Source: Acaryochloridaceae cyanobacterium VAR_48_metabat_390 (GTDB taxonomy: Bacteria; Cyanobacteriota; Cyanobacteriia; Thermosynechococcales; Thermosynechococcaceae). From it: a DNA stretch of 60,798 nucleotides. The notes under the pieces were generated by a model. That model worked only from the letters and a program-made list of their open reading frames with translations. It did no database searches and was not told the origin of the DNA. Each line of letters starts with the position of its first letter. Positions within the stretch are counted from its first letter, which is position 1. Positions 1-14,287 of the stretch are shown in pieces. The DNA lies in assembly GCA_031422435.1 (NCBI GenBank), contig JANPLU010000056.1, forward strand, positions 1 to 60,798, read 5' to 3'. Position numbers and translations under genes: made by a program.

Positions 1-63
1 ACCTCGTTGCTTTAAGGCTAGATTGTATTCACTCCAGTTGCGGACGCGGTATTGCTGTTTCAC
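1..63 (-). CDS. IS5/IS903-group transposase, N-terminal 21 codons (partial)
   Basis: GTG at 63-61 gives MKQQYRVRNWSEYNLALKQRG, matching the IS903-type N-terminal motif (NWxxYNxALxxRG). Too short for the ORF track. Confidence 0.8.
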   Translation of the reverse strand, partial: MKQQYRVRNWSEYNLALKQRG

Positions 64-140
64 CCTGCTGGCGCTGACTTTAGTTATTGAGATTTATATT
101 CTCATTACACATTGGTGACTCCTATTTATGCAACAACGCC
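1..140 (-). mobile_element. Left end of an IS5-family (IS903 group) insertion sequence; runs off the window
   Basis: Minus strand from 140 reads GGCGTTGTTGCATAAATA, resembling the IS903 terminal IR GGCTTTGTTGAATAAATC. A transposase N-terminus follows it. Confidence 0.8.
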
Positions 141-566
141 ATCCGAATCCCATAGATAGTTAGAAATAACCTGACCACCTAAGGAGTGTGCCACAATAAT
201 CACTTTTTTCGCCGAATTCCCCAAATCCTGATAGGCAGCCTGGAGACTTTTTGCAATTCTTTCTTGGGCGTCACTGTATACCCCAAACTTATCAGCTTTA
301 CTACTTTCTAGGCTTGCAGCGTCCGAAAAGCCAAATAGCAAGAATTTTCTTAGATCAAGCCAGTCAACTTTGGCCTGAGTACGTGTACGCTCAAACAGTT
401 CAGTCTGAGGGGTTTGCAGTAGATCTTGATAGTACACGGGTTGAAAAGAAACCTGATCCCACTCATTTGGTAAAAGCTTAGACTGTAGCTTTTGCTTGAA
501 ATCATCCGCATAGTTTTTTTCGGTATCACCCATGCCGTGAACCGTGAGCAACGCAATTTTTTTCAT
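126..566 (-). pseudogene. Alpha/beta-hydrolase-like protein truncated by the IS
   Basis: HGMG and AHSLGG nucleophile-elbow motifs. The last codons and stop (GVVA*) are supplied by the IS inverted repeat at 126-140. Confidence 0.7.
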
Positions 567-638
567 CTGCTATTACCCTAAATGATAACTGGTGTCGAGA
601 TGAATCTTAGCGCTGATCGCGTGGAAAAGTGAGTTAAG

Positions 639-689
639 AAATCTATAGATTGCACCGACAAATAAAATGTTGGGGCAATCTATAGATTT
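639..689. terminator. Long hairpin downstream of the HtrA gene
   Basis: AAATCTATAGATTGC (639-653) and GCAATCTATAGATTT (675-689) are a perfect 15-bp IR, with further inner pairing. Confidence 0.55.
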
Positions 690-707
690 ATTTGCTGCTA
701 CATAAAT

Positions 708-1901
708 CTATGGTTCATTACTCTGGGTTAATCGGGTCGGAATTGGCTCTGGCTGGATGCCAACATTGAGCGTTTGTCCACTGCGTCTTACCTCTAGCTG
801 GATTGATCGCCCCACCGAAGTATTTTCTACCCTTTGCTGCACCTGACTGGCTTTAGTGACATCTTGCCCATCAATGCGCTTAATGACATCACCCATTTTT
901 AAGCCCACTTTAGACGCTGGAGAGTTGGGCAGCACCTCAAAAATGAGAACACCCTGATCTTCTTGGACTCGTAGATTAGAGCTAGCATCCCCATTAATGC
1001 GCTGCCTTAGCTCAGGCGATAGATTTGTCATCCGAATGCCCAGAAAAGGATGGTTGACCTTACCCGTTGTCGCAAGCTGATTGGCGATTTTCTGAGCCGT
1101 TTTAATTGGGATTGCAAACCCTAACCCCTGGGCACCGCCGCCAATAATGGCGGTATTCATTCCAATCACCTGCCCATACTGGTTCAAAAGCGGTCCACCT
1201 GAGTTGCCTGGGTTAATTGCCGCATCGGTTTGGATGAAGCCCACGCGCTTATCGGGTACGCCAATGTCGCCGCTAGTGCGTCCGGTGGCGCTGATGATGC
1301 CCGCCGTTACGGTATTGTCTAAGCCCAAGGGGTTGCCAATGGCGATCGCCCATTCCCCAGGTCGAAGCTGATCAGAATCGCCCATTTGCGCGACGGGCAA
1401 ATTGTTCGCCTGAATTTTGACCACGGCAACATCGGTGAGGCTATCTTGCCCCAGAACCTTACCTTTAAGCGATCGCCCATCTTTGAGCAATACCGTCACA
1501 GAATCTGCACCATTCACCACATGGGAGTTGGTCAAAATTAGCCCATCGTTGCTGATAATAAAGCCGGAACCCGTACCCCGCTCCACACGAGTGCGACTTT
1601 GAGGCATCTCACCCCCAAAAAACTGTCTAAAAAATGGGTCATTAAAAACCGCAGGGGTTCGACTTCTGACTGTGCGTGACGCATCAATACGCACCACTGC
1701 TGGCCCCACTTTCTCAACCGCTCTCGCAATAAAATTTTGATCGCCTTGGACAAGTCGTGGTGCAGCAAGCTGCGCGACGCTAGGCTGTGGCGCAAAAGAT
1801 TTACCTGGAACCATTTGCGTGCCGACCAGCGTTGCAAGGGAACCAACCAAGAGCACAGATAAATAAGTAGCCGATTTCTGGATGGAGACTTTGGGCGACA
1901 T
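708..1901 (-). CDS. HtrA/Deg-family serine protease (HhoA/HhoB type) with one PDZ domain
   Basis: GSGFII, LTNSHVV and IQTDAAINPGNSGGPL motifs; N-terminal hydrophobic segment; C-terminal PDZ. Confidence 0.93.
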   Translation of the reverse strand: MSPKVSIQKSATYLSVLLVGSLATLVGTQMVPGKSFAPQPSVAQLAAPRLVQGDQNFIARAVEKVGPAVVRIDASRTVRSRTPAVFNDPFFRQFFGGEMPQSRTRVERGTGSGFIISNDGLILTNSHVVNGADSVTVLLKDGRSLKGKVLGQDSLTDVAVVKIQANNLPVAQMGDSDQLRPGEWAIAIGNPLGLDNTVTAGIISATGRTSGDIGVPDKRVGFIQTDAAINPGNSGGPLLNQYGQVIGMNTAIIGGGAQGLGFAIPIKTAQKIANQLATTGKVNHPFLGIRMTNLSPELRQRINGDASSNLRVQEDQGVLIFEVLPNSPASKVGLKMGDVIKRIDGQDVTKASQVQQRVENTSVGRSIQLEVRRSGQTLNVGIQPEPIPTRLTQSNEP

Positions 1902-2166
1902 GGTGAGGTAAGAGGGGTAGAGGTTTTTAGAGGTAAAGCTTCAAGGTCAATTTGTTTTGGGGTTAAAAATTTGCTAAGGACTATGTACGGTTATTCCTAG
2001 CAATCTTTTAAATTCTACTCATTTTCTAAAAGCTTTAGGAAATGACGTTCGTTGCTTTAGGGTATTGAATCAACGCCTAAAGAATGAACGCCATTTGTAC
2101 GGTGTGAGGTACATACTGAGCAAAGACGGACATTTTGAGCAAAGGTTTCCACAGCGAGAGGAGAAT

Positions 2167-3126
2167 ATGACGGATTATCAGCCGTCACAGCAATGGCAGC
2201 AGGCTCAAAATGAGCTTCAGCGCGTGTGGGGTTATTCACAGTTTCGGCCTTTGCAGGGTGAAATTGTTTTGTCAATTTTGCAGCGCAAAGATACCCTGGT
2301 TATGCTGCCCACAGGGGCGGGTAAGTCGCTATGCTTTCAGCTTCCGGCACTTTTGCAGACAGGCTTAACCATCGTAGTATCGCCCCTGGTTGCGCTAATG
2401 GAAAACCAAGTGCAGGCTTTGAAGACTCGCGGGGCGGATGCGGCGCTGCTGCACAGTGAGCAGTCGCGGGAGCAGCGACAGCAAACGCTATATAAGCTAG
2501 AGCGTGGTCAGTTAAGGCTGCTGTATCTGTCGCCAGAATCTTTGCTGGGCGCTAATTTATGGCAGCGCCTGATAGCCCCTTCTGTAAAAATCCAAACCCT
2601 TGTGATTGATGAGGCACACTGTATTACCCAGTGGGGCAGCAGTTTTCGACCCACCTATCGAAGGCTGGGTGCGGTGCGATCGACGTTACTGCAACAGCAG
2701 CCTGGGTCAGAAATTGCGATCGCCGCTTTTACCGCCACCGCTGACCCTGCCACTCAGCAAGATATTCGTAATGTGTTGGGTCTAAAGCAGCCGCAGGTCT
2801 TTCGCAATAGCCCCTACCGCAAAAATCTACACCTCAAGATTGTGCGGGTGTGGACTGCGGCACGTCGTCGCGATCGCCTCAATCAATTCATTCAAGCCCA
2901 AGGCCAAACCACTGGATTGGTCTATACCCGCAGCCGCAGAGATAGTGAGCAACTGGTCGAATGGCTGCAACTTCAGGGGTTGCACACCGCCGCCTACCAT
3001 GCTGGACTTGCCCCCCAAGAGCGTCGCCACATTGAGCAGCAGTGGCTCTCTGGCGAAATTCTCTTTGTGATTTGCACCTCTGCCTTTGGCATGGGCGTAG
3101 ATAAACCCAATGTGCGAAAAGTATAG
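2167..3126 (+). pseudogene. recQ: RecQ-family helicase, N-terminal part (interrupted by the Tn554-like element)
   Basis: LPTGAGKSLCFQLP, SPLVALMENQV, DEAHC, TATA and AFGMGVDKPNVR motifs. ATG 2167 follows GAGGAG. The frame is cut right after motif V; KV* comes from the element. Confidence 0.92.
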
Positions 3127-3247
3127 CTATCTACAGTCCGTCAATAATGTAAACATAGAATATATCAGCACACCATAACATTCTTCATTTACACTTAAAA
3201 ATACATTAGTAAACAGAGTAAATAGAGTATACTAAGTATATTGTCAG

Positions 3248-4345
3248 ATGTACTTAGTAATGAAAGTTCAAAGGATAAGGATCCCAAGTAGTGACAAGGT
3301 GACTTGGGTTTTGTTGGATGACAATCATAAATTCGTAGAACCAGTTAAAGGCTATCTGAAGTACCTGGATAGCCTAGAAAGATCTCCTAACACTATTCAC
3401 GCTTACGCTAATCACCTAAAGCTTTTGTGGGAATACCTCAAGGCTTCTGAGCTTGAATGGACTGAGGTTAATCTAGAAAACCTTGCTAACTTCATTTCAT
3501 GGCTGCGAAGACTAGACCATCGGGTTATCTCTATAAAGCCACAGGAGTCTAGGCGCTCTGAAGGGACGATTAACGCGATTCTGTCTGTAGTCTGTGGGTT
3601 TTATGACTTCCATGAACGCATAGGCACCTTAGAAGGGATTGATGCCTACCGTTATCAGTTTCAACCTGGGCAGCGATATAAGTCTTTCCTTCATCACATC
3701 AATAAAGGAAAGGCAACACGGACACGGCTCTTAAAGCTCAAACAGCCAAAGAGAATCCCTAAGATTCTGACTCAAGAGCAATGTCTAGCAGCGATCGCCG
3801 CCTGTAATCGCCTAAGAGATAAGTTCTTGCTATGTCTGTTAAGCGAGACAGGGATGCGAATAGGACAGGCTTTAGGACTAAGACATGAAGATGTCCGGTC
3901 TTGGGACAACCAAATTCAAATCGTCTCTAGAGATGACAACGCTAATGGAGCTAGAGCAAAGACCAGAGAGACATATACCATCCATGTCTCTGTAGATTTA
4001 ATGGTCTTGTATGCCGATTACCTGACGAACGAGTATCCCGAAGATATCAACTCTGACTATTTATTTATCAACATCTGGGAAGGGCGAATAGGCTACCCAA
4101 TGACCTACTCAACGATCCAAGCCCTATTTAGCCGCCTATCCAGAGAATTAGGGTATAAGGTTCATCCCCACATGTTTCGGCATACCCACGCAACAGAACT
4201 AATTCGTAGCGGGATGGGTATGGCAATGGTTCAAAAGCGTCTAGGCCATGCCAGCATTCAAACCACGATTGACACCTATACGCATCTTTCGACTGAAGAC
4301 CTTAAAGATGCCTACAACACCTATCTAGAGGAAAGAGACAAGTGA
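3248..4345 (+). CDS. tnpA: Tyrosine recombinase, Tn554 TnpA-like (likely start ATG 3260)
   Basis: MKVQRI...YLKYLDSLERSPNTIHAYANHLKLLWEYL resembles the Tn554 TnpA N-terminus. Catalytic TGMRIG, HPHMFRH, LGH, TYTH. Confidence 0.88.
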   Translation: MYLVMKVQRIRIPSSDKVTWVLLDDNHKFVEPVKGYLKYLDSLERSPNTIHAYANHLKLLWEYLKASELEWTEVNLENLANFISWLRRLDHRVISIKPQESRRSEGTINAILSVVCGFYDFHERIGTLEGIDAYRYQFQPGQRYKSFLHHINKGKATRTRLLKLKQPKRIPKILTQEQCLAAIAACNRLRDKFLLCLLSETGMRIGQALGLRHEDVRSWDNQIQIVSRDDNANGARAKTRETYTIHVSVDLMVLYADYLTNEYPEDINSDYLFINIWEGRIGYPMTYSTIQALFSRLSRELGYKVHPHMFRHTHATELIRSGMGMAMVQKRLGHASIQTTIDTYTHLSTEDLKDAYNTYLEERDK

Positions 4346-5943
4346 TTGAGCCTCAGATTGATTTATCCGAACCATTAGTAAATACTGAAGTAGACTCTGT
4401 TTCAAGGCCAGCGCTAGTCTGTAGGCATTGTGGCGGTTGGCGTTTTGTTAAACGGCGGAAAAATCCTAAGGGCTATCAAATATACCTTTGCAGGGTTTGT
4501 AACCGTCATTTTGATGACGAACCACCTAAGCCTGACTATATTGTTGACCCTGAAGCTGAGTATAAAAAGGATATTTGGGACAGTCGAAACCTTGGAGTGC
4601 CTAGCAGGGTAGGGAGGTATCTCTATAAGCTCAACTTTGAGAGTATTGAGCAATCCTGGCTCATTCAGCCAGCTAAGCAGTACATTCGTTTCACTTTAAG
4701 CACTCTGAGCTTTTCCTCAGCCATCGAAAAGCTGCTATCTATAAAGCGGTTCTCAAAGTATTTAGCTCAGGCTCATCCATCGGTTAACCCTGAGGATATT
4801 GACCGGACAGTGATTGTAGGGTTCCTCAGCCACCTATCGACTCAGAGCTTATCTGTTTCTACAAGATGTCAAACCATCGGTAGCCTCAGAGGGTTTTTAG
4901 AGTCTTGCGTTCAAAATGATTGGGTCAGAGTCCGAAGGTACTTAGTTCGGCATGAAGATTTTCCCAAACGGTCAAAATCTGTCCCTAGATTCATTCCTCA
5001 AGATGTGCTGAGTCAATTAAATAAACATTTAGAAGATTTACCGGAGCCAGTCATGCGGATGGTTCTGGTCATCCAAGAATGTGGAATGCGAATTTCTGAA
5101 CTGTTGTATCTGAAGCCTGACAGCCTGATTCAAGACAAGTCAGGAGACTGGTTCTTACGGTATTACCAGTTCAAGATGAAAAAAGAGATCACCATCCCAG
5201 TCTCTAAAGAGATCACCTTTGTTATTCAGGAACAGCAGCGCTACATTACAAAGCATCTTGAGGGTTTTGTGTATCTGTTTTGCGCTAACGAAGGTGGAGG
5301 GCGATCGGCAAACGGGGTCTTTATCCCAACTCCCAAAAACATGAGTCCACAAGCATTTGCCCTATACCTCAATAAATTAGCTGCTAAGCACAACATTTGT
5401 GCTTCATCGGGCAAGGTTTGGCATTTTCAGGCTCACCAGTTCAGACACACTGTAGGCACCAGAATGATCAACAATGGTGTTCCTCAACATATTGTGCAGC
5501 GCTATCTAGGGCATGAGTCGCCAAATATGACGGCGGTGTATGCCCATATCTTTGACCAGACCATGAAAGAAGAGATCGCTAAGTTTCAAGGCAAAGTGGT
5601 CAATATTGCTGGGCAGGTGATTGAATCAGATGAGCTTGAACAAGACATAGACGATTTAGCCTGGTTTAAGCGTAATATTCAGGCACAGGCATTACCTAAT
5701 GGATCTTGCGCCTTACCTTCTATCTCTCAAGGGTGTCCACATGCAAATGCTTGCTTGACTTGCTCTCACTTTCGGACTACGGCAGAGTTTCTGGAAGACC
5801 ACAAAGGCCAGTTAGAACAGACTCAAAAGATTCTTGAGAAAGCAAAAGCGAATGGATGGGTTCGGCAGATTGAGATGAATGAAAAGGTTAAGATCAGCCT
5901 AGAAAGCATTGTAAAGACTCTAGAGGAACCTTCTGATGGCTAA
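4342..5943 (+). CDS. tnpB: Tyrosine recombinase, Tn554 TnpB-like, with N-terminal zinc ribbon
   Basis: GMRISE; HQFRHTVGTRMINNGVPQHIVQRYLGHESPNMTAVYAH; C-terminal CPHANACLTC cluster; overlaps the tnpA stop. Confidence 0.88.
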   Translation: MIEPQIDLSEPLVNTEVDSVSRPALVCRHCGGWRFVKRRKNPKGYQIYLCRVCNRHFDDEPPKPDYIVDPEAEYKKDIWDSRNLGVPSRVGRYLYKLNFESIEQSWLIQPAKQYIRFTLSTLSFSSAIEKLLSIKRFSKYLAQAHPSVNPEDIDRTVIVGFLSHLSTQSLSVSTRCQTIGSLRGFLESCVQNDWVRVRRYLVRHEDFPKRSKSVPRFIPQDVLSQLNKHLEDLPEPVMRMVLVIQECGMRISELLYLKPDSLIQDKSGDWFLRYYQFKMKKEITIPVSKEITFVIQEQQRYITKHLEGFVYLFCANEGGGRSANGVFIPTPKNMSPQAFALYLNKLAAKHNICASSGKVWHFQAHQFRHTVGTRMINNGVPQHIVQRYLGHESPNMTAVYAHIFDQTMKEEIAKFQGKVVNIAGQVIESDELEQDIDDLAWFKRNIQAQALPNGSCALPSISQGCPHANACLTCSHFRTTAEFLEDHKGQLEQTQKILEKAKANGWVRQIEMNEKVKISLESIVKTLEEPSDG

Positions 5944-6454
5944 GGAGGGCGCTTATTTAGGTTGGCAACGGAACACGGAAGGGATTAAATCCTCTGCTCA
6001 GAAAAAGAGGCAAGATGCCTTTGACAAGACGGACGAAGCTATAAAGGTACTGATCAAGACCCAGAAACCTATAAACTTTGAGGCGGTCGCACAAGCTGCT
6101 GGCGTAACTAGGCAATGGCTTTATAACCAGCCAGAGCTAAAGAATAGGATTGAGACGCTTAGGGCACAACAGACCCCAAAGAAGTCAATTCCTCAATCCC
6201 AATCGGCATCAGACGCTTCAAAGGACGCAATTATCAAAACTCTTAGGCAGCGACTCAGAAAGGCAGAAGACGATAACAAAGAGCTACAGAAGCGGATTGA
6301 GGTTGCTTATGGGATGGCTCAGGCTGACTTAGTAGAGTCTCTAGAGTCTGAGGTCAAAGACCTACAGAAGCAGAATCAGCACTTAATGAGGCTGCTTACT
6401 GAAGCTAGAGAAGAAATTACTGAGGCGAGACCCCAGCGAATTCAGGAAAAATAA
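5936..6454 (+). CDS. tnpC: TnpC-like (DUF6262-type) HTH/coiled-coil protein
   Basis: INFEAVAQAAGVTRQWLY HTH followed by a coiled coil; third gene of the overlapping tnpABC operon. Confidence 0.8.
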   Translation: MAKEGAYLGWQRNTEGIKSSAQKKRQDAFDKTDEAIKVLIKTQKPINFEAVAQAAGVTRQWLYNQPELKNRIETLRAQQTPKKSIPQSQSASDASKDAIIKTLRQRLRKAEDDNKELQKRIEVAYGMAQADLVESLESEVKDLQKQNQHLMRLLTEAREEITEARPQRIQEK

Positions 6455-6549
6455 GCGTTGACAATAGCAGGCTATAGTCCGTCATTAGTTGACAAAAACA
6501 AATCAATATGCAAATATAGTAGACAGATTGCTTAACTACTAACCTAATT

Positions 6550-7401
6550 TTGTCAACTAATGATTTGTTGGCTGATTTTGAGGATGGTGGCAATTGCCCA
6601 GAAAGCTCTAGTCTAAAGCTGCGTATGATTTTCGAAGATGATTTGTTTGACGAATTAAGTAATCAAAGACTTAAAAAGTATCTACAAGTTTATCAAAAAT
6701 CAATTCCACTTGATTTTGATCAAAATCTTTTTGAATTAATACGTGGCTTCCCAAGACTTTGTGAAAAAGTTGAAGGTGAAATTCCTATTAGGAAAGAATT
6801 CAAGAGAAATGCAATGCAGGGAAATTTTTCCCGCGCTTTATTTGAAAGTAAAGTTATAGATTTGTCAGAAAAACTTTCTTTAAAATCTGGAGTTTTTGCG
6901 TCAGGAGGTGGATCCAGGCATATAAAAGTTTCTACCAATTCTGTAGTTATTACAATTCATTCGATTGGGGACAATGAGACAAGGAAATCAAGATTCACTG
7001 AGTACAAAAAAAGACTTTCCAGATCAAACCCAGACGGAAACTCAGAGGATATCAACTTACAGGGTAATTTTTTTATAGATGATGATATTGGTCAGCCAGA
7101 GATAGCTTTCAATGATAATTTTAACGACTCTAGACTGTACTTCACAATTTGTGTCCCCAGATTTTCGCATAGTAGGAGAGATGCATATTTAATTCTCCCA
7201 ACTTCTTATTATTCTAGTAAGTCTATTTTTGAGTTAAACTACTATGGTATACGAGAAGTTTTTGAAACGGAACAGCCATTTTCGGTCTACACTGAAAATG
7301 ACATTACACCTGGGTTGATCTCATTAAAAAATGACGATATAAATATAATTTTTCCTAATCCATTAGATGGAGAGGGCAAAACAGAAGATGGAGAGACATA
7401 A
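6550..7401 (+). CDS. Uncharacterised AT-rich cargo protein, translationally coupled to the XRE-peptidase gene (start uncertain)
   Basis: 283-aa ORF; the stop TAA overlaps the next ATG at 7401; many AGA/AGG codons. Confidence 0.7.
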   Translation: MSTNDLLADFEDGGNCPESSSLKLRMIFEDDLFDELSNQRLKKYLQVYQKSIPLDFDQNLFELIRGFPRLCEKVEGEIPIRKEFKRNAMQGNFSRALFESKVIDLSEKLSLKSGVFASGGGSRHIKVSTNSVVITIHSIGDNETRKSRFTEYKKRLSRSNPDGNSEDINLQGNFFIDDDIGQPEIAFNDNFNDSRLYFTICVPRFSHSRRDAYLILPTSYYSSKSIFELNYYGIREVFETEQPFSVYTENDITPGLISLKNDDINIIFPNPLDGEGKTEDGET

Positions 7402-8636
7402 TGTTAAATGGAACACCTGGATTTCAGGGGTTAAGACTCAAGCAATCGAGAATTATTAGACGGAAGAATATAACTGCTCTTGCTAATGAATTAGGTATAA
7501 GCAAGGCGACAGTTTCAGCGTATGAACAATGCTTACGAACTCCAAGTCCTGAGGTAATGGGGAAAATTTGTCAAGTCCTTGAGTTCCCGCTCGACTTTTT
7601 CCTTTCTGACCCTAAAAAGATAGTTGAAAATGATAAGCCAGCAATGTGGAGGTCTTATCTTTCTGCGACACAAATGGCAAGAAGCTGCGCAGCGGAAAAA
7701 TGTAAAATCTTTGTTTCTATTGCTGCATACTTAAACCAGTATGTTAACTTCCCCCCCTTAAATCTTCCTAAATTTGATGTGCCGTCTGACCCCACATCTA
7801 TTTCTGATGAAGATATTCAACACATTGTCAAAAAAACTCGAAAATACTGGGGATTAAGTTTAGGCCCTATTAGCAATATAGTTTGTCTGCTTGAAAATAA
7901 TGGTTTGATGGTAGCTAAATTTCCATTTGAATGTGAGAAATTAGATGCATTTTCAGTTACGATTGATGGCTATCCAATTGTCGTGATTGGTTCAGACAAA
8001 GGCTCTGCAGTCAGACAGAGATTTGATGCTGCGCATGAGTTAGGCCATTTCTTGCTTCATAGAAATGTCCCGAAGGATGATCTTGAATCCAAAAAGTTTC
8101 ACAACATTCTTGAGCAGCAAGCTAACTATTTTGCATTTGATTTTCTTTTCCCTACAGAAGCTTTTGAGGCTGAAGTCAAAAGAATAAGCCTTAATGATTT
8201 TATGTATGCAAAAAGAAAATGGAAAGTTTCAATTTCTTCCCTCATTTTTAACTCAGCAAAAAAGAATTTTTCATCTCCTGATGAGACAAGAAATTTATTT
8301 AGAGCTTTAGCCAGGAGGGGCTGGAACAAGATTGAACCTTTTGATGATGAGTTTGTTTGCGAAGAACCTCGATTAATTAGAGAAGCACTGCAATTAGTTT
8401 TAGAAGGTGGAATTCAAACCCCCTTGGACATATATAAGCAATTCGATTTGAACTTTTATGACATTGAGTCAATAGCTGGACTGCAAGAAGGATATCTATC
8501 ATCCTTTAATAGCAGAAATACTTTGACATTAAAAGAGAAGTATTCAACACATCCCCCACAAAGCGTCGACGCAACCCCCAAAAGTAAATCATCAAACGTC
8601 GTTAGTTTTCTTGAGGCTTACGCCCAACGGAAGTAA
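7401..8636 (+). CDS. XRE-family HTH fused to an ImmA/IrrE-type Zn metallopeptidase
   Basis: N-terminal HTH (ALANELGISKATVSAYE); RQRFDAAHELGH (HExxH); EQQANYFA third-ligand motif. Confidence 0.88.
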   Translation: MLNGTPGFQGLRLKQSRIIRRKNITALANELGISKATVSAYEQCLRTPSPEVMGKICQVLEFPLDFFLSDPKKIVENDKPAMWRSYLSATQMARSCAAEKCKIFVSIAAYLNQYVNFPPLNLPKFDVPSDPTSISDEDIQHIVKKTRKYWGLSLGPISNIVCLLENNGLMVAKFPFECEKLDAFSVTIDGYPIVVIGSDKGSAVRQRFDAAHELGHFLLHRNVPKDDLESKKFHNILEQQANYFAFDFLFPTEAFEAEVKRISLNDFMYAKRKWKVSISSLIFNSAKKNFSSPDETRNLFRALARRGWNKIEPFDDEFVCEEPRLIREALQLVLEGGIQTPLDIYKQFDLNFYDIESIAGLQEGYLSSFNSRNTLTLKEKYSTHPPQSVDATPKSKSSNVVSFLEAYAQRK

Positions 8637-8641
8637 AAGTT

Positions 8642-8672
8642 AAGCCTTGGAGACCTAAAATCTCCAAGGCTT
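8642..8672 (+). terminator. Perfect 12-bp stem-loop after the XRE-peptidase stop (terminator or processing stem)
   Basis: AAGCCTTGGAGA-cctaaaa-TCTCCAAGGCTT. Confidence 0.65.
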
Positions 8673-8677
8673 CTCAT

Positions 8678-8744
8678 GGGCCTCGCAGGATGCCAGTGGC
8701 GTCTCCTAAACTCCGGCTGAGGGGTTCGACTCCCCTGAGGTCCA
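8678..8744 (+). tRNA. tRNA-Arg(CCU)-like RNA with shortened D-arm (atypical or pseudo-tRNA)
   Basis: Acceptor GGGCCTC/GAGGTCC+A; T-arm AGGGG-TTCGACT-CCCCT; anticodon arm GGCGT-CTCCTAA-ACTCC (4/5 pairs); only 13 nt between the acceptor and anticodon stems. Confidence 0.65.
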
Positions 8745-8849
8745 CACCTTAAGCTATCAACTCTAATCTGTTTTACAGGAAGGCTCTGAGTAGCTCACAG
8801 TTAAAGTCTAGGCTGTAAATCTTAAGTACCAAGGCTGAAGTCTCAAGAG

Positions 8850-9596
8850 CTAATTTTCGCTGAAAACCCTTGAAATCCTCCTCTGGATATCTACCGCAGC
8901 CTGAAGGGGGTCAGCCGCATTTTTTATTGGTCTGCCAACTACAATATAATCAGCTCCATTTAGGAAGGCTTCTTCTATGTCAACAGTCCTTTTTTGATCA
9001 TCAGTATTATCAATGGGTCTGATCCCAGGTGAAACTATTAAAAAGTTATCACCCAGGTAATTTCTTAATGATTGAGCTTCCAAGCCTGAAGAGATAACCC
9101 CATCGCAACCCAAGTTTAACGCTCTTTTAGCTCTAGACAAAACTAACGCTTCAACATCACACTGAAACCCTAAATCGTCTAAATCTTTTCTATCAAGGCT
9201 TGTAAGAACCGTAACGGCAAGAATTTTTAAATCTCCCTTTGCCTCTACAGCATATTTCAAGATCTCATCGTTGCCATGAACTGTAGCAAAAGTAGCGCCT
9301 TTATTTTTTAGCTGACGAACCGCAGATCCAACCGTTTGCGGAACGTCAAAAAACTTTAAGTCCACAAAAACCTTTTTCCCCTGGTCTGCTAGCCAATCAA
9401 CCATTTCATAATAGCCGCCAGCCATAAAAAGCTCTAATCCAAGCTTGTAAAATACGACAGAGTCTCCAAGCCTTAATACCATTTGTTTTGCTAATTCATT
9501 GCTTTCAAAATCAAGAGCAAAAATTAACCTTTCTTTAGTGTCTATAGCTTTATCAGAAAGATAGACTCGATTTTGCATTTCTATTGCTGAAGACAT
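8850..9596 (-). CDS. pyrF: Orotidine-5'-phosphate decarboxylase (transposon cargo)
   Basis: LIFALD, YKLGLEL, DLKFFDVPQTV (DxKxxD), AVTVLTS, PGIRP, DDQKR and VVGRPI motifs; start at 9596 or 9578. Confidence 0.92.
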   Translation of the reverse strand: MSSAIEMQNRVYLSDKAIDTKERLIFALDFESNELAKQMVLRLGDSVVFYKLGLELFMAGGYYEMVDWLADQGKKVFVDLKFFDVPQTVGSAVRQLKNKGATFATVHGNDEILKYAVEAKGDLKILAVTVLTSLDRKDLDDLGFQCDVEALVLSRAKRALNLGCDGVISSGLEAQSLRNYLGDNFLIVSPGIRPIDNTDDQKRTVDIEEAFLNGADYIVVGRPIKNAADPLQAAVDIQRRISRVFSEN

Positions 9597-9849
9597 AGGG
9601 ATAACAGTAGTGTTTTGCTCAAGCGCAAAACTACATTCCAAAGATGATGGACAAATTCTCATTATACCGAACAACTGTCACAGATGTCTATCTATGAGAG
9701 AGTTATGCAATCTTTATGCCTCTAACCTCAAACCATGAAGATTAGCTGAATCATAAGAAATATTTCCAAGATATACTTATACTTCATTTACTGTAAATAA
9801 GCTGAATTCCTTACTCTACGGTGTTTATAGGGATTGAGCTATAAATAAT

Positions 9850-10344
9850 TTGCGCTGGGTCTGCCACTTTCACCCCCCGTTAACCCTTGCAGAATACCTT
9901 CAGGAAATTGGCAGAGCGGGGCGAGATGGGCAGAACGCCCAAACGTTACTGCTAGCAAGCGAACCGACGGGGCTACTAGACCCCACCGATCGCCAGCGAC
10001 GGGAAGGGTTCTTGAAGACCATGCGATCGCAGGCTCAACTAGCACAAACCTTAGCCCAGCAGCTCCCCAGCGAAGGTTATCTGCCCGATATTCTCAAGCA
10101 GGAACCACAGGCAGAACTGGCCTTAGCAATTTTGCATACTCAAGGGCAGTTGAGTTGGGTTGATCCATTTCACTACCGCCTTCAGCTTAAAACTGCAATG
10201 GTGTCCAATGCCGAGCCACAGACTTCCATCGAAGCCTATCTGTCTGTGCGCGATTGCCGCTGGCGATTTTTGCTGGGTGCCTTTGGGTTTGGGCGAGAGG
10301 TGCAGGGGCTGAAGTGTGGTAGGTGCGATCAGTGCATTAATTAA
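9850..10344 (+). pseudogene. recQ: RecQ-family helicase, C-terminal part
   Basis: RWVCHF...YLQEIGRAGRDG (motif VI) and RecQ Zn-binding CRW...CGRCDQC; in frame with the 5' part once the element is removed. Confidence 0.92.
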
Positions 10345-10351
10345 ATACTCT

Positions 10352-10867
10352 CTAGTCTTCTTGCTCATTTATTTTGCGTGTCAGAGTTTCAATTTTTTCT
10401 TTTCGTTCTTCTCTGCGATTATTACTTCCATAAACAAACACACCAACTAAGGCAACAATTGAACCTGTAGAAAGAGTGGCTCCAGCCACATCATGCCCTC
10501 TATCTATGAGATAAATTCCGCCTCCCAATGCTAGGCAAGATATCAAAAATCCAAATATCAACCCAAGTTCAGCACGCTTGCTATCGCCATAGACAACCGT
10601 AGACTCAAGCTCCATGCGGTGCTTGGATTGGGCTTGAGCCATATTCACAATCTCTTGAGCTAAACCAGGCTTAATTAAATCATATGCCTTCAATGTTCGT
10701 GGGTCAGGAATCGGCCCTGAGTATGCCATCGACATCTGAACAGTTCTTTCGATAGATGCAGAAGATTCCTTTTTATGCACAGGGAAATCTTTATGTGCCT
10801 CATGTGGAGAGTTCACATCAAGCCCTTGTGCTTGTTCGTCATCTCTGGGAGCTAAAGAATCGGTCAA
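10352..10867 (-). CDS. DUF2335-like predicted membrane protein
   Basis: YSGPIPDP...AQSKHRMELE motif followed by two hydrophobic helices. Confidence 0.75.
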   Translation of the reverse strand: MTDSLAPRDDEQAQGLDVNSPHEAHKDFPVHKKESSASIERTVQMSMAYSGPIPDPRTLKAYDLIKPGLAQEIVNMAQAQSKHRMELESTVVYGDSKRAELGLIFGFLISCLALGGGIYLIDRGHDVAGATLSTGSIVALVGVFVYGSNNRREERKEKIETLTRKINEQED

Positions 10868-10870
10868 CGT

Positions 10871-11149
10871 CTACACCTTAATCAAATCTTGTGCATTTAG
10901 AAGGACAAGTGTTGCCTCACAAAGAATATTTTCGTCCACACATTTTTCTGTCTCCTTGTTAACAGAAATTGCTAACTCAATATCACTTCCCACCATGATC
11001 CAATCTGACATTAGAGCTAGATAATCAGCCTCTTCGTTGGTTATGGATGAATTATATTGATTCAAAGTCCCGCCAAGATCCAGCAGATGAGCCATGCCAC
11101 CCAGAAAAGATGGTGAAGCAAATAGATAGGCGGATAGAGTATTGGTCAT
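10871..11149 (-). CDS. Small hypothetical protein, 3 nt upstream of the DUF2335 gene
   Basis: 92-aa ORF with ATG preceded by AGAGG; operonic spacing. Confidence 0.65.
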   Translation of the reverse strand: MTNTLSAYLFASPSFLGGMAHLLDLGGTLNQYNSSITNEEADYLALMSDWIMVGSDIELAISVNKETEKCVDENILCEATLVLLNAQDLIKV

Positions 11150-11476
11150 TTTAAGCTGCCTCTTTAAAGTTAAGGCTGAGTCACAAAAATTGTGAACCTT
11201 ATCACTGTCAGAATTTTTTTGTCAACCCTTTGCTGCCATGTTATGATTTTATCTCAATTTAAGTAACGATGCACAGTCAAGTTAGTTAAGCGCTAGCGAG
11301 AAGAAAAGTACGAGTTGAGTTAAAACACACTTGGAACTCCAAGTATGCACCAAGTATGAGTATGATCTCACATCTCTTAAAGGATGTTTAGGAAATCCCC
11401 CAGAGTTCTTGTCGAGAGAAGCTTTGAGTCACGATCATGAAAAATCGTCAAGCTTCTTTAGATATTGATATTCTAA

Positions 11477-11758
11477 CCAGCAGCTCCCTAGCGAAGGCTA
11501 TCTGCCCGATATTCTTAAGCAAGAGCCACAGGCGGAGTTGGCCTTAGCGATTTTGCATACTCAAGGGCAGTTGAGCTGGGTTGATCCATTTCACTATCGT
11601 CTTGAGTCCAAAACTGCGATGGTGTCTAATGCCGAGCCACAGACTTCCATCGAAGCCTATCTGTCTGTGCGCGATTGCCGCTGGCGGTTTTACTGGGTAC
11701 CTTTGGGTTTGGGCGAGAGGCACAGGGGTTAGTGTGTGGTAAGTGCGATCGCTGTTAG
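11477..11758 (+). pseudogene. recQ: Orphan second copy of the recQ 3' end
   Basis: Aligns with 10056-10330 with about 28 substitutions (mostly synonymous) and a 1-nt deletion; ends CGKCDRC* over a HIP1 site. Confidence 0.92.
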
Positions 11759-11905
11759 CCCTAGCGTCATTAATACATCTGGAAAATAGAGCGAGACTAT
11801 AGTTCTCACAACAGAAGACAGTTGCCCTGCTTCTCGTTCTTATTTCCTCTGCTACAGGATCCCAAACGCTTTTCGCCGTAAAAGTGTCAAAATCTAGTAA
11901 GACTT

Positions 11906-13108
11906 GTGAAAGGTAAAAACGTGGGCGAAAAAGCATTGTTTACCCCCACCGGAAAGTGGATCGTTGGCGGTGCTATCGCTGTCGCGCTAGGTCTAGCTGC
12001 CCTCGGCCTAGCGCAGGTGATGAATCGCCCTTCTGCAAAGCAGTCAGAAGCCCCCGCTGCTCCTGCTCAACCCGCTTCTGCTGCCAAAATTACGGCATTA
12101 GGGCGCATAGAACCAGCAGGAGAAGTCGTCAAAGTGGGTGGGCCATCGGGAGAACGCATTAAACGGCTGCTGGTTAAAGAAGGTCAGGCTGTTACCGTAG
12201 GGCAGCCCATTGCCTATCTAGAAAGCTACGATGAGCAGCTTGCGAGTAGAAATGTCTCTCAAAGCCAGCTCAATGATGCCTTGGCGCAATTCAACAGCGT
12301 ACAGCAGTATGGAGAGGCTCAAATTGCAGAAGCACAAACGCGGCGATCGCAGTCTAACTCCCCTAAACTTAAAGAACTCGCAGCTCAAGCCGCAACCATC
12401 ACTCGTATTCAGTCAGAACTTGCCATTGCTCAAAAAGATCTCCAGCGATTTCAAAGTTTACAAACCAGCGGGGCAATATCGCAAAAAGATTTAGACGATA
12501 AGCAGCTTATCTACCAAACCAAAGCTGGGCAGCTCAAAGAAGCCGAAGCCCAACTCGCCAAAATTCAGCAGGAGCGAGACACCAGCATGATAAATGCCGA
12601 TGCTCAAATTCGCTCAGCGCGGGCAGATCAAGGGCGATCGCAGGCACAAATCCAAATCGACACGGCGCGCAGTAACCTCAACCTTGCCCAAGCCAAACTC
12701 GATCGCACCATTATTCGGGCACCCCAATCTGGGCAAATCTTAAAGGTACTCAAAAAGCAGGGTGAGGCATTAGAGCCATCCACAGGCGGAACCTCTGGCG
12801 GGCAGGGGATTGTAGAACTCGGCAACACCAATCAAATGTATGTGGTTGCCGAAGTGTATGAAACCGATGTCAGCCGCGCCAGAGTAGGGCAACCTGCCGT
12901 CATTACCAGCTCAGCATTTTCAGGCGAGATTGCTGGCATTGTAGAGCGGGTGGGTCTCAAAATTGGCAAAAATGATGTGACCAATACCGACCCCGCTGCC
13001 AATACCGACACCCGCGTCGTGGAAGTTAAAATCCGCCTCCTCAATAGCCGTCCCGTTGCAAACCTGACCAACCTCCAGGTACAGGTTGTTATTACGCCCA
13101 AGACTTAA
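11906..13108 (+). CDS. devB: DevB-family ABC exporter membrane-fusion protein (start may be GTG 11921)
   Basis: TM anchor; ALGRIEP; coiled coil; MYVVAEVYETD...DTRVVEVKIRL. Confidence 0.88.
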   Translation: MKGKNVGEKALFTPTGKWIVGGAIAVALGLAALGLAQVMNRPSAKQSEAPAAPAQPASAAKITALGRIEPAGEVVKVGGPSGERIKRLLVKEGQAVTVGQPIAYLESYDEQLASRNVSQSQLNDALAQFNSVQQYGEAQIAEAQTRRSQSNSPKLKELAAQAATITRIQSELAIAQKDLQRFQSLQTSGAISQKDLDDKQLIYQTKAGQLKEAEAQLAKIQQERDTSMINADAQIRSARADQGRSQAQIQIDTARSNLNLAQAKLDRTIIRAPQSGQILKVLKKQGEALEPSTGGTSGGQGIVELGNTNQMYVVAEVYETDVSRARVGQPAVITSSAFSGEIAGIVERVGLKIGKNDVTNTDPAANTDTRVVEVKIRLLNSRPVANLTNLQVQVVITPKT

Positions 13109-13135
13109 CGCTCAAGACCTAGCGCTGCCAGAATA

Positions 13136-14287
13136 ATGTTTGCAATTCCCTTAGCTTGGCTCCAGCTTACCCGCGAAAAAATGCGCCTCTTGGTAGCGCT
13201 GGCGGGGATCTCTTTTGCCGTCATTTTGATGATGATTCAGCTCGGGTTTCGGGATGCGCTGTTTGATGCCTCCACAACCATGCACATTAACCTCAATACG
13301 GATATTGTGCTGATTAGCCCTCAGTCTTCGTCGCTCATTGCCATGAAGAATTTTGCGCGGCGGCGACTTTACCAAACCCTCTCGGTTTCAGGCGTTGAGT
13401 CCATTACCCCAATGTCTATAGGGTTTGGCAACTGGATTAACCCCGAAACCCGTAAGCCTCGACAGCTCATGATTATTGCCTACCCACCCGATGCCGACGT
13501 TTTTAATTTGCCAGGAATTAAGGAGTATCAAAACAGGGTAAAAGCAGAAAACGTGGTGTTGTTTGATGAAGCCTCACGGCCTGAGTTTGGCCCCATTGCT
13601 CAGTGGTTTAGAGAAGGCAAAACCGTGACAGCCGAAGTCTCTGGGCGCAAAGTGACCGTAGGGGGCATTTTTAAGCTGGGGGCTTCTTTTGGTGCCGATG
13701 GCAATATTCTCACCAGCGATATTAATTTAGTGCGGATTTTGTCAGATCGCTCGCTCGCTCTCATTGACGTAGGCCTTATCAAGCTAAAGCCAGGAACCGA
13801 TGCAGCCCAGGCGCTTCAAGATATCCGCAAAGCCCTGCCGGAGGATGTAGACGTGTTGACTAAATCCGGTTTTGCCGACTTTGAACGTTCTTATTGGCAG
13901 AGTAGTACGGCGATCGGGTTTATTTTTAGCCTGGGTTCAGCGATGGGGTTTATTGTGGGCATTGTGATTGTGTACCAGATTTTGTACACAGACGTGTCCG
14001 ATCACTTAGCCGAGTACGCCACTCTAAAAGCAATGGGGTACCGTAGCTATTTCTTGATTTCTGTGGTGCTACAGGAAGCGCTAATTTTGTCGGTGTTAGG
14101 CTACCTGCCTGGTTTTTTCTTAAGTATCGGGCTATATAAGCTTACGAAAGATGCAACGTCACTTCCCATTGGAATGACGGTAGAACGAGGGATTACAGTT
14201 TTTATTTTAGCGGTGATTATGTGTGTGGTATCGGGGGTGATCGCCATGCGTAAAGTTCAGGCGGCTGACCCTGCGGATATTTTTTAG
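13136..14287 (+). CDS. devC: DevC-family ABC permease
   Basis: IPLAWLQL, VYQILYTDVSDHLAEYATLKAMGY and ADPADIF signatures. Confidence 0.92.
   Translation: MFAIPLAWLQLTREKMRLLVALAGISFAVILMMIQLGFRDALFDASTTMHINLNTDIVLISPQSSSLIAMKNFARRRLYQTLSVSGVESITPMSIGFGNWINPETRKPRQLMIIAYPPDADVFNLPGIKEYQNRVKAENVVLFDEASRPEFGPIAQWFREGKTVTAEVSGRKVTVGGIFKLGASFGADGNILTSDINLVRILSDRSLALIDVGLIKLKPGTDAAQALQDIRKALPEDVDVLTKSGFADFERSYWQSSTAIGFIFSLGSAMGFIVGIVIVYQILYTDVSDHLAEYATLKAMGYRSYFLISVVLQEALILSVLGYLPGFFLSIGLYKLTKDATSLPIGMTVERGITVFILAVIMCVVSGVIAMRKVQAADPADIF

Follow-up and report, generated by a model that had tools for sequence, protein, structure and literature searches.

Transposons of the Tn554 family are listed from Staphylococcus and Enterococcus (PMC10214605), with Actinobacteria and Bacillus added as hosts (PMC3414803). 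In the insertion footprint described for Tn554 and for the elements called SEs, the left 6-mer of the donor becomes the right-end 6-mer at the new site (PMC10214605, PMC12486829). In circles formed by a Tn554 relative, the left att predominates (PMC12486829), and SE circles arise without leaving an empty site (PMC9345347). The disruption of competence genes is an established strategy of mobile elements (PMC12378983, PMC11472951), and the available text of a review on this subject names neither recQ nor Tn554 and touches on cyanobacteria in a reference only (PMC12378983). The locus described here lies in a 60,798-nucleotide stretch of DNA (the window; contig JANPLU010000056.1 of Acaryochloridaceae cyanobacterium VAR_48_metabat_390), in which a Tn554-family transposon, intact as judged from its genes and ends, splits a gene for a short RecQ-family helicase. 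The element probably disables natural transformation for good and would thereby escape curing, rather than acting as a reversible switch.

The recQ gene is split at residue 317, between motif V (TSAFGMG, residue 304) and motif VI (QEIGRAGR, residue 333), by a 6,738-bp insert at positions 3117–9854, which bears out the coordinates given in an earlier note on this DNA. The 5′ half (2167–3116, + strand) contains codons 1–317 with motifs I–V, matches TIGR00614 and is 97% identical to the intact gene of the same-genus genome G001. As interrupted, this half ends in ...NVRKV* and encodes 319 residues. The 3′ half (9855–10344, + strand) contains motif VI and a C-terminal cysteine cluster. Both halves are open, as the note had said. 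The undivided protein has the features of the short RecQ class (recQcy), with about 480 residues and a helicase core not followed by the C-terminal domains that long RecQ has. The GC content of the insert is 40.5%, compared with 54% in the recQ halves and 49% in the genome. The assembly contains one copy of the element.

The insert was originally described as bounded by near-identical cores, AATGTGCG at 3109–3116 and AATTTGCG at 9847–9854. These cores are present. When the 13 elements that have both ends are compared, the junction units narrow to 6-mers, TGTGCG (3111–3116, + strand) on the left and TTTGCG (9849–9854, + strand) on the right. In this register, the element body stops at 9848 (…GCTATAAATAA), and the AA common to both cores is partly the element's own terminus. 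The left 6-mer is host target sequence, as the intact genes of the same-genus genomes G001, G003 and G007 read AATGTGCG(G/C)TGG, encoding NVRW. The right 6-mer is foreign to the host, and no target duplication is observed. By analogy with the footprint of Tn554 and SEs, TTTGCG was likely brought from the previous insertion site. The two junction 6-mers are identical in six of the 13 elements and differ by 1–5 mismatches in the other seven, as this rule predicts. Tracing of right 6-mers among the copies within multi-copy genomes yielded no traceable donor-recipient pair.

An inverted pair that the note had placed just inside the ends, TATAGCT (3122–3128) and AGCTATA (9837–9843), belongs to an imperfect terminal inverted repeat of approximately 12 bp. 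The pair is not a chance occurrence because the repeat recurs in all 13 elements, whose terminal repeats have a (T/C)AGC core in common. The left end (3117–3155, + strand) consists of one arm of the repeat (3117–3128) and a conserved GTAAACA box 32 bp inside. The right end (9837–9848, + strand) is the other arm, AGCTATAAATAA, with the consensus GCTMWARATAA. The 13 elements share one layout, in which host DNA, a 6-mer, the left end, the element, the right end, a second 6-mer and host DNA follow one another.

The left part of the element encodes three proteins on the + strand that correspond to TnpA, TnpB and TnpC of L069. This Tn554-family element, of the Tn558 type, carries fexA and interrupts a radC-like gene of a staphylococcal plasmid. 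The tnpA gene (3248–4345) encodes a 365-residue tyrosine recombinase with the catalytic residues R204, H308, R311, H334 and Y344. The tnpB gene (4342–5943) overlaps tnpA by 4 bp with no gene in between and encodes a 533-residue tyrosine recombinase with an N-terminal CxxC-CxxC zinc ribbon (residues 27–53). Its catalytic set is complete (R250, H365, R368, H391 and Y400), and its match to NF050000 (26 bits) lies under the 28-bit cut-off of that family. The tnpC gene (5936–6454) encodes a 172-residue DUF6262 protein. Relative to L069, TnpA is 45% identical, TnpB 43% identical over 478 residues and TnpC 33% identical (E 4e-21), so the element stands as the cyanobacterial Tn554 relative that the note had proposed.

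To place this insertion among its relatives, 401 class-level genomes and then five family or order sets were searched (sizes 48, 57, 90, 173, 17 and 301, the window's order included). Genome and metagenome collections were also searched, and the metagenome scan contributed a duplicate and a fragment only. Up to 20 kb was taken around the matches, and 58 different cyanobacterial loci resulted, with the window counted among them. A further 13 matches at 41–44% identity, one 3.3-kb metagenome fragment and the plasmid matches H1–H3 stand outside this set. Left junctions were located with a left-end profile, and interrupted genes were named by family search.

The four genes short recQ, comM, comEA and comEC are split in 19 of the 58 loci, at eight distinct sites. 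Short recQ accounts for nine loci and two sites. Five of these, from five families, are split at the codon used in the window (site II; window, L055, L058, L088 and L092) and four at motif I (site I; L054, L061, L083 and L084). The comM gene is split in seven loci at three sites, comEA, which encodes a protein with PLD and HhH domains, in two loci at two sites and comEC in one locus. The recQ target suggested by the single insertion of the window is thus a recurring one. Other targets are the 3′ ends of dnaN (three loci), recD2, hsdR and a CoiA_N-domain gene (one each) and the ends of IS605 tnpB genes (three loci and two further likely ones without a family match). The long RecQ gene is hit in none of the 58 loci. 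In a TnpB tree, the 18 competence-gene elements with a TnpB fall into two clades, with support values of 1.0 and 0.97, which together comprise 24 loci. The tabulation of insertion sites proposed in the note supports recQ as a repeated target and, through the company that recQ keeps, points to transformation genes.

An unrelated large serine-recombinase element also cuts short recQ in genome G156, approximately 18 bp upstream of the Tn554-type site. This element was observed at L142 (4938–6422; G156:C73), where the cut lies at AFGMGI. A loss of the recQ 5′ half at L058 was considered and rejected, as the half was found on another contig behind a serine-recombinase element.

The link between short RecQ and transformation comes from a random barcode transposon sequencing screen in Synechococcus elongatus, which scored 1,885 genes and found 47 to be needed for transformation with high confidence (PMC7125226). 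The recQ gene Synpcc7942_1301 (1,464 bp) ranks 17th of 1,885, between pilW and pilT, with a fitness of -2.05 and a T value of -17.2 (PMC7125226 supplement). The corresponding fitness values are -2.46 for comEA, -2.43 for comEC, -2.28 for dprA and -1.38 for comM (rank 33), and dnaN is neutral (PMC7125226). All four of the split genes, recQ, comEA, comEC and comM, are in the 47-gene set (PMC7125226). With all screened genes as the baseline, the chance that four genes all lie within the 47 is roughly 3e-7, or 5e-6 when two off-target groups are counted. Expression of recQ peaks at 11.8 h, compared with 11.6 h for comEA, and recQ is shade-induced (PMC7125226 supplement); the main text of the screen, as available, does not name recQ (PMC7125226). 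Synpcc7942_1301 is taken to be the orthologue of the window gene because its 487 residues fit the 476–548-residue open frames of the group, not the long forms, and the gene listing of PMC5101192 agrees. An E. coli-type recQ is not among the genes listed for the S. elongatus strain in the available part of that paper, which also records recQ together with comE and comFC in two Prochlorococcus strains and their absence in others (PMC5101192). One passage elsewhere calls the recQ gene an RNA helicase (PMC10781874).

In the other eight hosts with a split short recQ, the long RecQ is intact in every case (711–756 residues), and no second intact short orthologue is present. In the window's host (G000), comEA, comEC, dprA and comM are open.

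Target choice appears to follow TnpB. Changes of insertion site were counted on trees of the 18 competence-gene elements that contain all three genes, and the target labels were shuffled 5,000 times. The TnpB tree requires seven changes (minimum 6; shuffled mean 11.7), a count matched by none of the 5,000 shuffles, compared with nine on the TnpA tree (P 0.013) and 11 on the TnpC tree (P 0.39). The window's TnpA clusters with that of a comM element and its TnpB with those of the other recQ site-II elements. In zinc-ribbon TnpBs (10/12), identity within targets exceeds identity between targets by 0.22–0.24 over residues 1–80 and by 0.14–0.21 up to residue 220, and the difference falls to approximately zero at the C-terminus. 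In TnpA, the same difference is 0.01–0.04 along the whole length. The zinc-ribbon consensus of TnpB is distinct for each target. The target site thus likely tracks TnpB rather than TnpA or TnpC, and these comparisons point to TnpB as the target selector, as a lead rather than as proof.

These observations are best joined in a model in which the element lastingly disables transformation. TnpA, TnpB and TnpC would copy the element out as a circle that carries the left 6-mer, and the donor site would stay occupied. TnpB would pick the target, probably through its N-terminal zinc ribbon and the adjacent binding domain. The 319-residue RecQ product would have no activity, as motif VI is missing from it. 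Without short RecQ, incoming DNA would be integrated inefficiently even in a host that has pili, ComEA, ComEC, DprA and ComM. Element-free alleles would then rarely replace the occupied locus, and the element would be shielded from curing by transformation. We favor this model because recQ, comM, comEA and comEC, all in the 47-gene set, are the genes split in 18 of the 24 loci that the two TnpB clades comprise, because an unrelated serine-recombinase element cuts the same recQ and because the long RecQ is spared by all 58 loci and intact in the eight hosts.

Several observations weigh against this model. Most loci (39 of 58) are not placed in the four genes, 28 of them at unassigned, intergenic or contig-end positions, and six of the 24 clade loci (L078–L080, L082, L089 and L090) are elsewhere or unassigned. 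Three recQ site-I elements come from one genus. The clade of recQ site-II TnpBs has an ultrafast bootstrap value (UFBoot) of 83 in the 18-element tree, although its support is 0.999 in the other TnpB tree, and the TnpB signal is a lead because kin elements share target labels. The orthology of Synpcc7942_1301 draws on length and a published gene listing, not on sequence comparison. The long RecQ of the window's host spans an assembly gap, with residues 2–156 at the end of contig C12, residues 592–747 at the end of contig C83 and a middle part that is either unassembled or interrupted. Three genomes of one genus (G012, G023 and G222; 99% complete) lack short recQ with the queries used and keep comEA, comEC, dprA and comM, so recQ is not bound to competence everywhere. 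Copy-out is borrowed from SEs, and the gain that the element would draw from lowered transformation is presumed. Co-occurrence of short recQ with competence genes was also considered and found no support in four genomes picked for lacking short recQ. In G012 and G023, no recQ-family match of any kind was observed.

A stronger version of this model is possible, but we hold it with less than even confidence. It describes a dedicated anti-transformation lineage that would retarget among recQ, comM, comEA and comEC by swapping the N-terminal DNA-reading module of TnpB, with short RecQ as an unrecognised core transformation helicase.

A safe harbour is the best surviving alternative, although an unlikely one. 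Conserved and dispensable genes would be targeted as widespread and cheap to lose, and the transformation role of the targets would be a by-product without gain for the element. Competence genes are non-essential as well as conserved, insertions of sister lineages lie at dnaN ends, at IS605 ends, in hsdR and between genes, and the long RecQ kept by the hosts may make the loss of short recQ cheap. However, the four genes that contain the eight sites all belong to the 47 high-confidence genes out of 1,885 screened non-essential ones, a narrow part of what is dispensable, and the same recQ is struck by an unrelated integrase.

Regulated-excision switches, such as the comK prophage and the heterocyst elements, restore the interrupted gene through signal-dependent excision between matched direct-repeat cores. 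An analogous competence switch, in which the element would excise at a signal such as dusk or from some copies of a polyploid chromosome and restore RecQ like the Listeria comK prophage, is improbable here. Such a switch would fit the open halves, a feature that the window shares with the seven other recQ-split loci available in full, and the identical 6-mers of six of the 13 elements, which would allow scarless excision. As the note had predicted, a crossover on either side of the core mismatch yields an open 479-residue RecQ (NVRWVC or NLRWVC). Frame retention is automatic, however, and is uninformative about a switch because any 6-for-6-bp junction keeps the frame. Matched cores for scarless restoration are not found family-wide, with seven of the 13 elements mismatched. 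Retention of the right 6-mer, as expected for an empty site if circles carry mostly the left att, changes V to L in the window, a mild replacement, and V to S in L058, and it alters a conserved motif non-conservatively in five of the 13 elements (TG to SA, TG to RR, TG to TL, VR to FG and LI to RS). SEs leave no empty site, and in G156 two elements would need to leave.

Excision products were sought in the contigs of two sediment samples, X1, which may be the source sample, and X2; nothing from a third sample of the same study (X3) matched. Neither the circle joint, sought in the element-bearing contigs, nor the exact empty-site joint (3116>9855) was found in X1 or X2, and contigs can miss rare products. 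One X2 contig (depth 4.7) skips the element, which could be counted in favor of a competence switch, but its joint is 3117>9856 rather than 3116>9855. The sample holds related organisms, and the contig was rejected as an excision product since another allele is the simpler explanation. The ratio of nonsynonymous to synonymous substitution (dN/dS) relative to intact relatives is 0.11–0.13 for the 5′ half and 0.01–0.18 for the 3′ half, compared with 0.14–0.17 and 0.03–0.17, respectively, between intact pairs. Both halves thus resemble intact genes, but the comparison proposed in the note would look alike after a recent insertion and with a working switch and is uninformative on function after insertion.

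The reversible DNA-repair switch induced by DNA damage that the note had put forward is the least credible reading, since the open halves, their in-frame rejoining, the recurrence of recQ and the upregulation of Arthrospira recQ by gamma rays (PMC5101192) are outweighed by co-targets (comM, comEA and comEC) that serve transformation rather than repair, a long RecQ kept in eight of eight hosts, automatic frame retention, a lack of excision products in the X1 and X2 contigs and a helix-turn-helix (HTH)-peptidase cargo that matches RmrA antitoxins and has a homolog at one other locus, unlike a conserved excision regulator.

Downstream of tnpC, a gene on the + strand (6550–7401) encodes a 283-residue protein without a Pfam or NCBIfam family and with two other homologs. 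This protein and one homolog match RmrT weakly (E 0.018 and 0.0076), the third protein has no match, and a defence-family search (PADLOC) gave no RmrT match at E 0.01. Its single-sequence fold has a pLDDT of 30, and an Atlas search returned hypothetical clusters alone, with low recognition. The adjacent gene (7401–8636, + strand) encodes an RmrA-like antitoxin with an HTH and an M78 peptidase (PADLOC RmrA, E 5e-102) and has a homolog at one other locus among the 58. The 283-residue protein is a candidate toxin of a RosmerTA-like pair. A second pyrF gene (8850–9674, − strand), which encodes an orotidine monophosphate (OMP) decarboxylase 35% identical to that of the host's own copy on contig C48, was observed to be low in GC and to have no counterpart in the other loci of the 58 (tblastn). 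No Rfam match was found within window positions 1–14,000, and no sigma-70 promoter or terminator consensus was found in 1900–3300.

Several features were observed at other loci. L055 contains a two-gene cargo (1287–2823) between the left end and tnpA, in which one gene starts like a DprA-type protein; the two genes presumably resemble defence toxin-antitoxin pairs. The dnaN subclade (left junctions L057, L063 and L077) leaves a complete-looking C-terminus (…PVQIRS). L104–L106 are three identical copies in one genome, each located where an IS605-type tnpB gene ends (3′ end). L066, L067, L068, L107, L109 and L110 form a more remote group in which three recombinases precede tnpC and whose targets include recD2 and the CoiA_N-domain gene. 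L059, L060, L073, L074 and L075 are cargo-free, IS-like 3.5-kb TnpABC elements with an end motif of their own (TTATAT…AGTCG) at unassigned sites.

The last 275 bp of the window recQ were also observed to be duplicated (10056–10330 and 11477–11750; 89% identical). In the second copy, which bears the flank syntenic with G001, 1 bp is deleted. A DUF2335 gene (10352–10867) and a gene for 92 residues (10871–11149), not found in nine same-genus genomes, separate the copies. This arrangement suggests an earlier, independent insertion by which the 3′ end was replaced. Relative to G001, the 3′ half differs at 56 of 476 positions and the 5′ half at 47 of 950. A 3′ half carried in by the element as a foreign allele was rejected, as intact relatives show this asymmetry among themselves and a second right end was not found.

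If the knock-out model is correct, cyanobacteria join the organisms in which mobile elements and natural transformation are in conflict, and recQ is added to the genes attacked. The model also highlights a helicase that scored close to comEC and dprA in a genome-wide screen but was not discussed there. Some cyanobacteria that resist transformation despite a complete competence gene set may be explained in this way, since standard checklists would miss a split recQ. The question of which Tn554 protein selects the target becomes testable because close relatives with different targets permit TnpB swaps. If retargeting by TnpB modules holds true, such swaps would give retargetable site-specific integrases and a first handle on Tn554 site choice. 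A full-text literature search found no report of a cyanobacterial Tn554 or TnpC, of recQ as an insertion target or of recQ as a cyanobacterial transformation gene; subscription coverage was thin, and an earlier mention is possible.

Among mobile elements that disrupt competence genes, AbaR and Tn7-like elements in comM and prophages in comYC, comGA, comFA and comK resemble the elements described here in that they insert into transformation genes. They differ in their recombinase family, and here a single lineage accounts for eight sites in four genes. SEs are gammaproteobacterial, and Tfp, located between intA and intB, is one of their four core genes, whereas the window element has three without an intervening gene. 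The cargo resembles RosmerTA (RmrT-RmrA) in that an HTH-zinc peptidase with a strong RmrA match lies directly downstream of an uncharacterized gene (bioRxiv 10.1101/2022.05.11.491447), but the upstream gene matches RmrT weakly, and a role in defence is putative.

The closest systems are the members of the Tn554 family (Tn554, Tn558, Tn553/Tn552-II and Tn6674). The window element shares with them homologous tnpA, tnpB and tnpC genes in the same order and orientation, R-H-R-H-Y residues in both recombinases, a foreign right 6-mer without target duplication, short imperfect inverted repeats (approximately 12 bp here), cargo after tnpC and site-specific insertion into a conserved gene. In contrast, it resides in a cyanobacterium, it interrupts short recQ where they use radC or a yolD-like gene, and it carries a defence-like pair and pyrF instead of resistance genes. 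TnpB of L069 has 637 residues and a long N-terminus, whereas the 533-residue TnpB of the window has a zinc ribbon there. The element belongs to the Tn554 family by every testable defining feature, and its host phylum, zinc-ribbon TnpB and transformation-gene targets are new.

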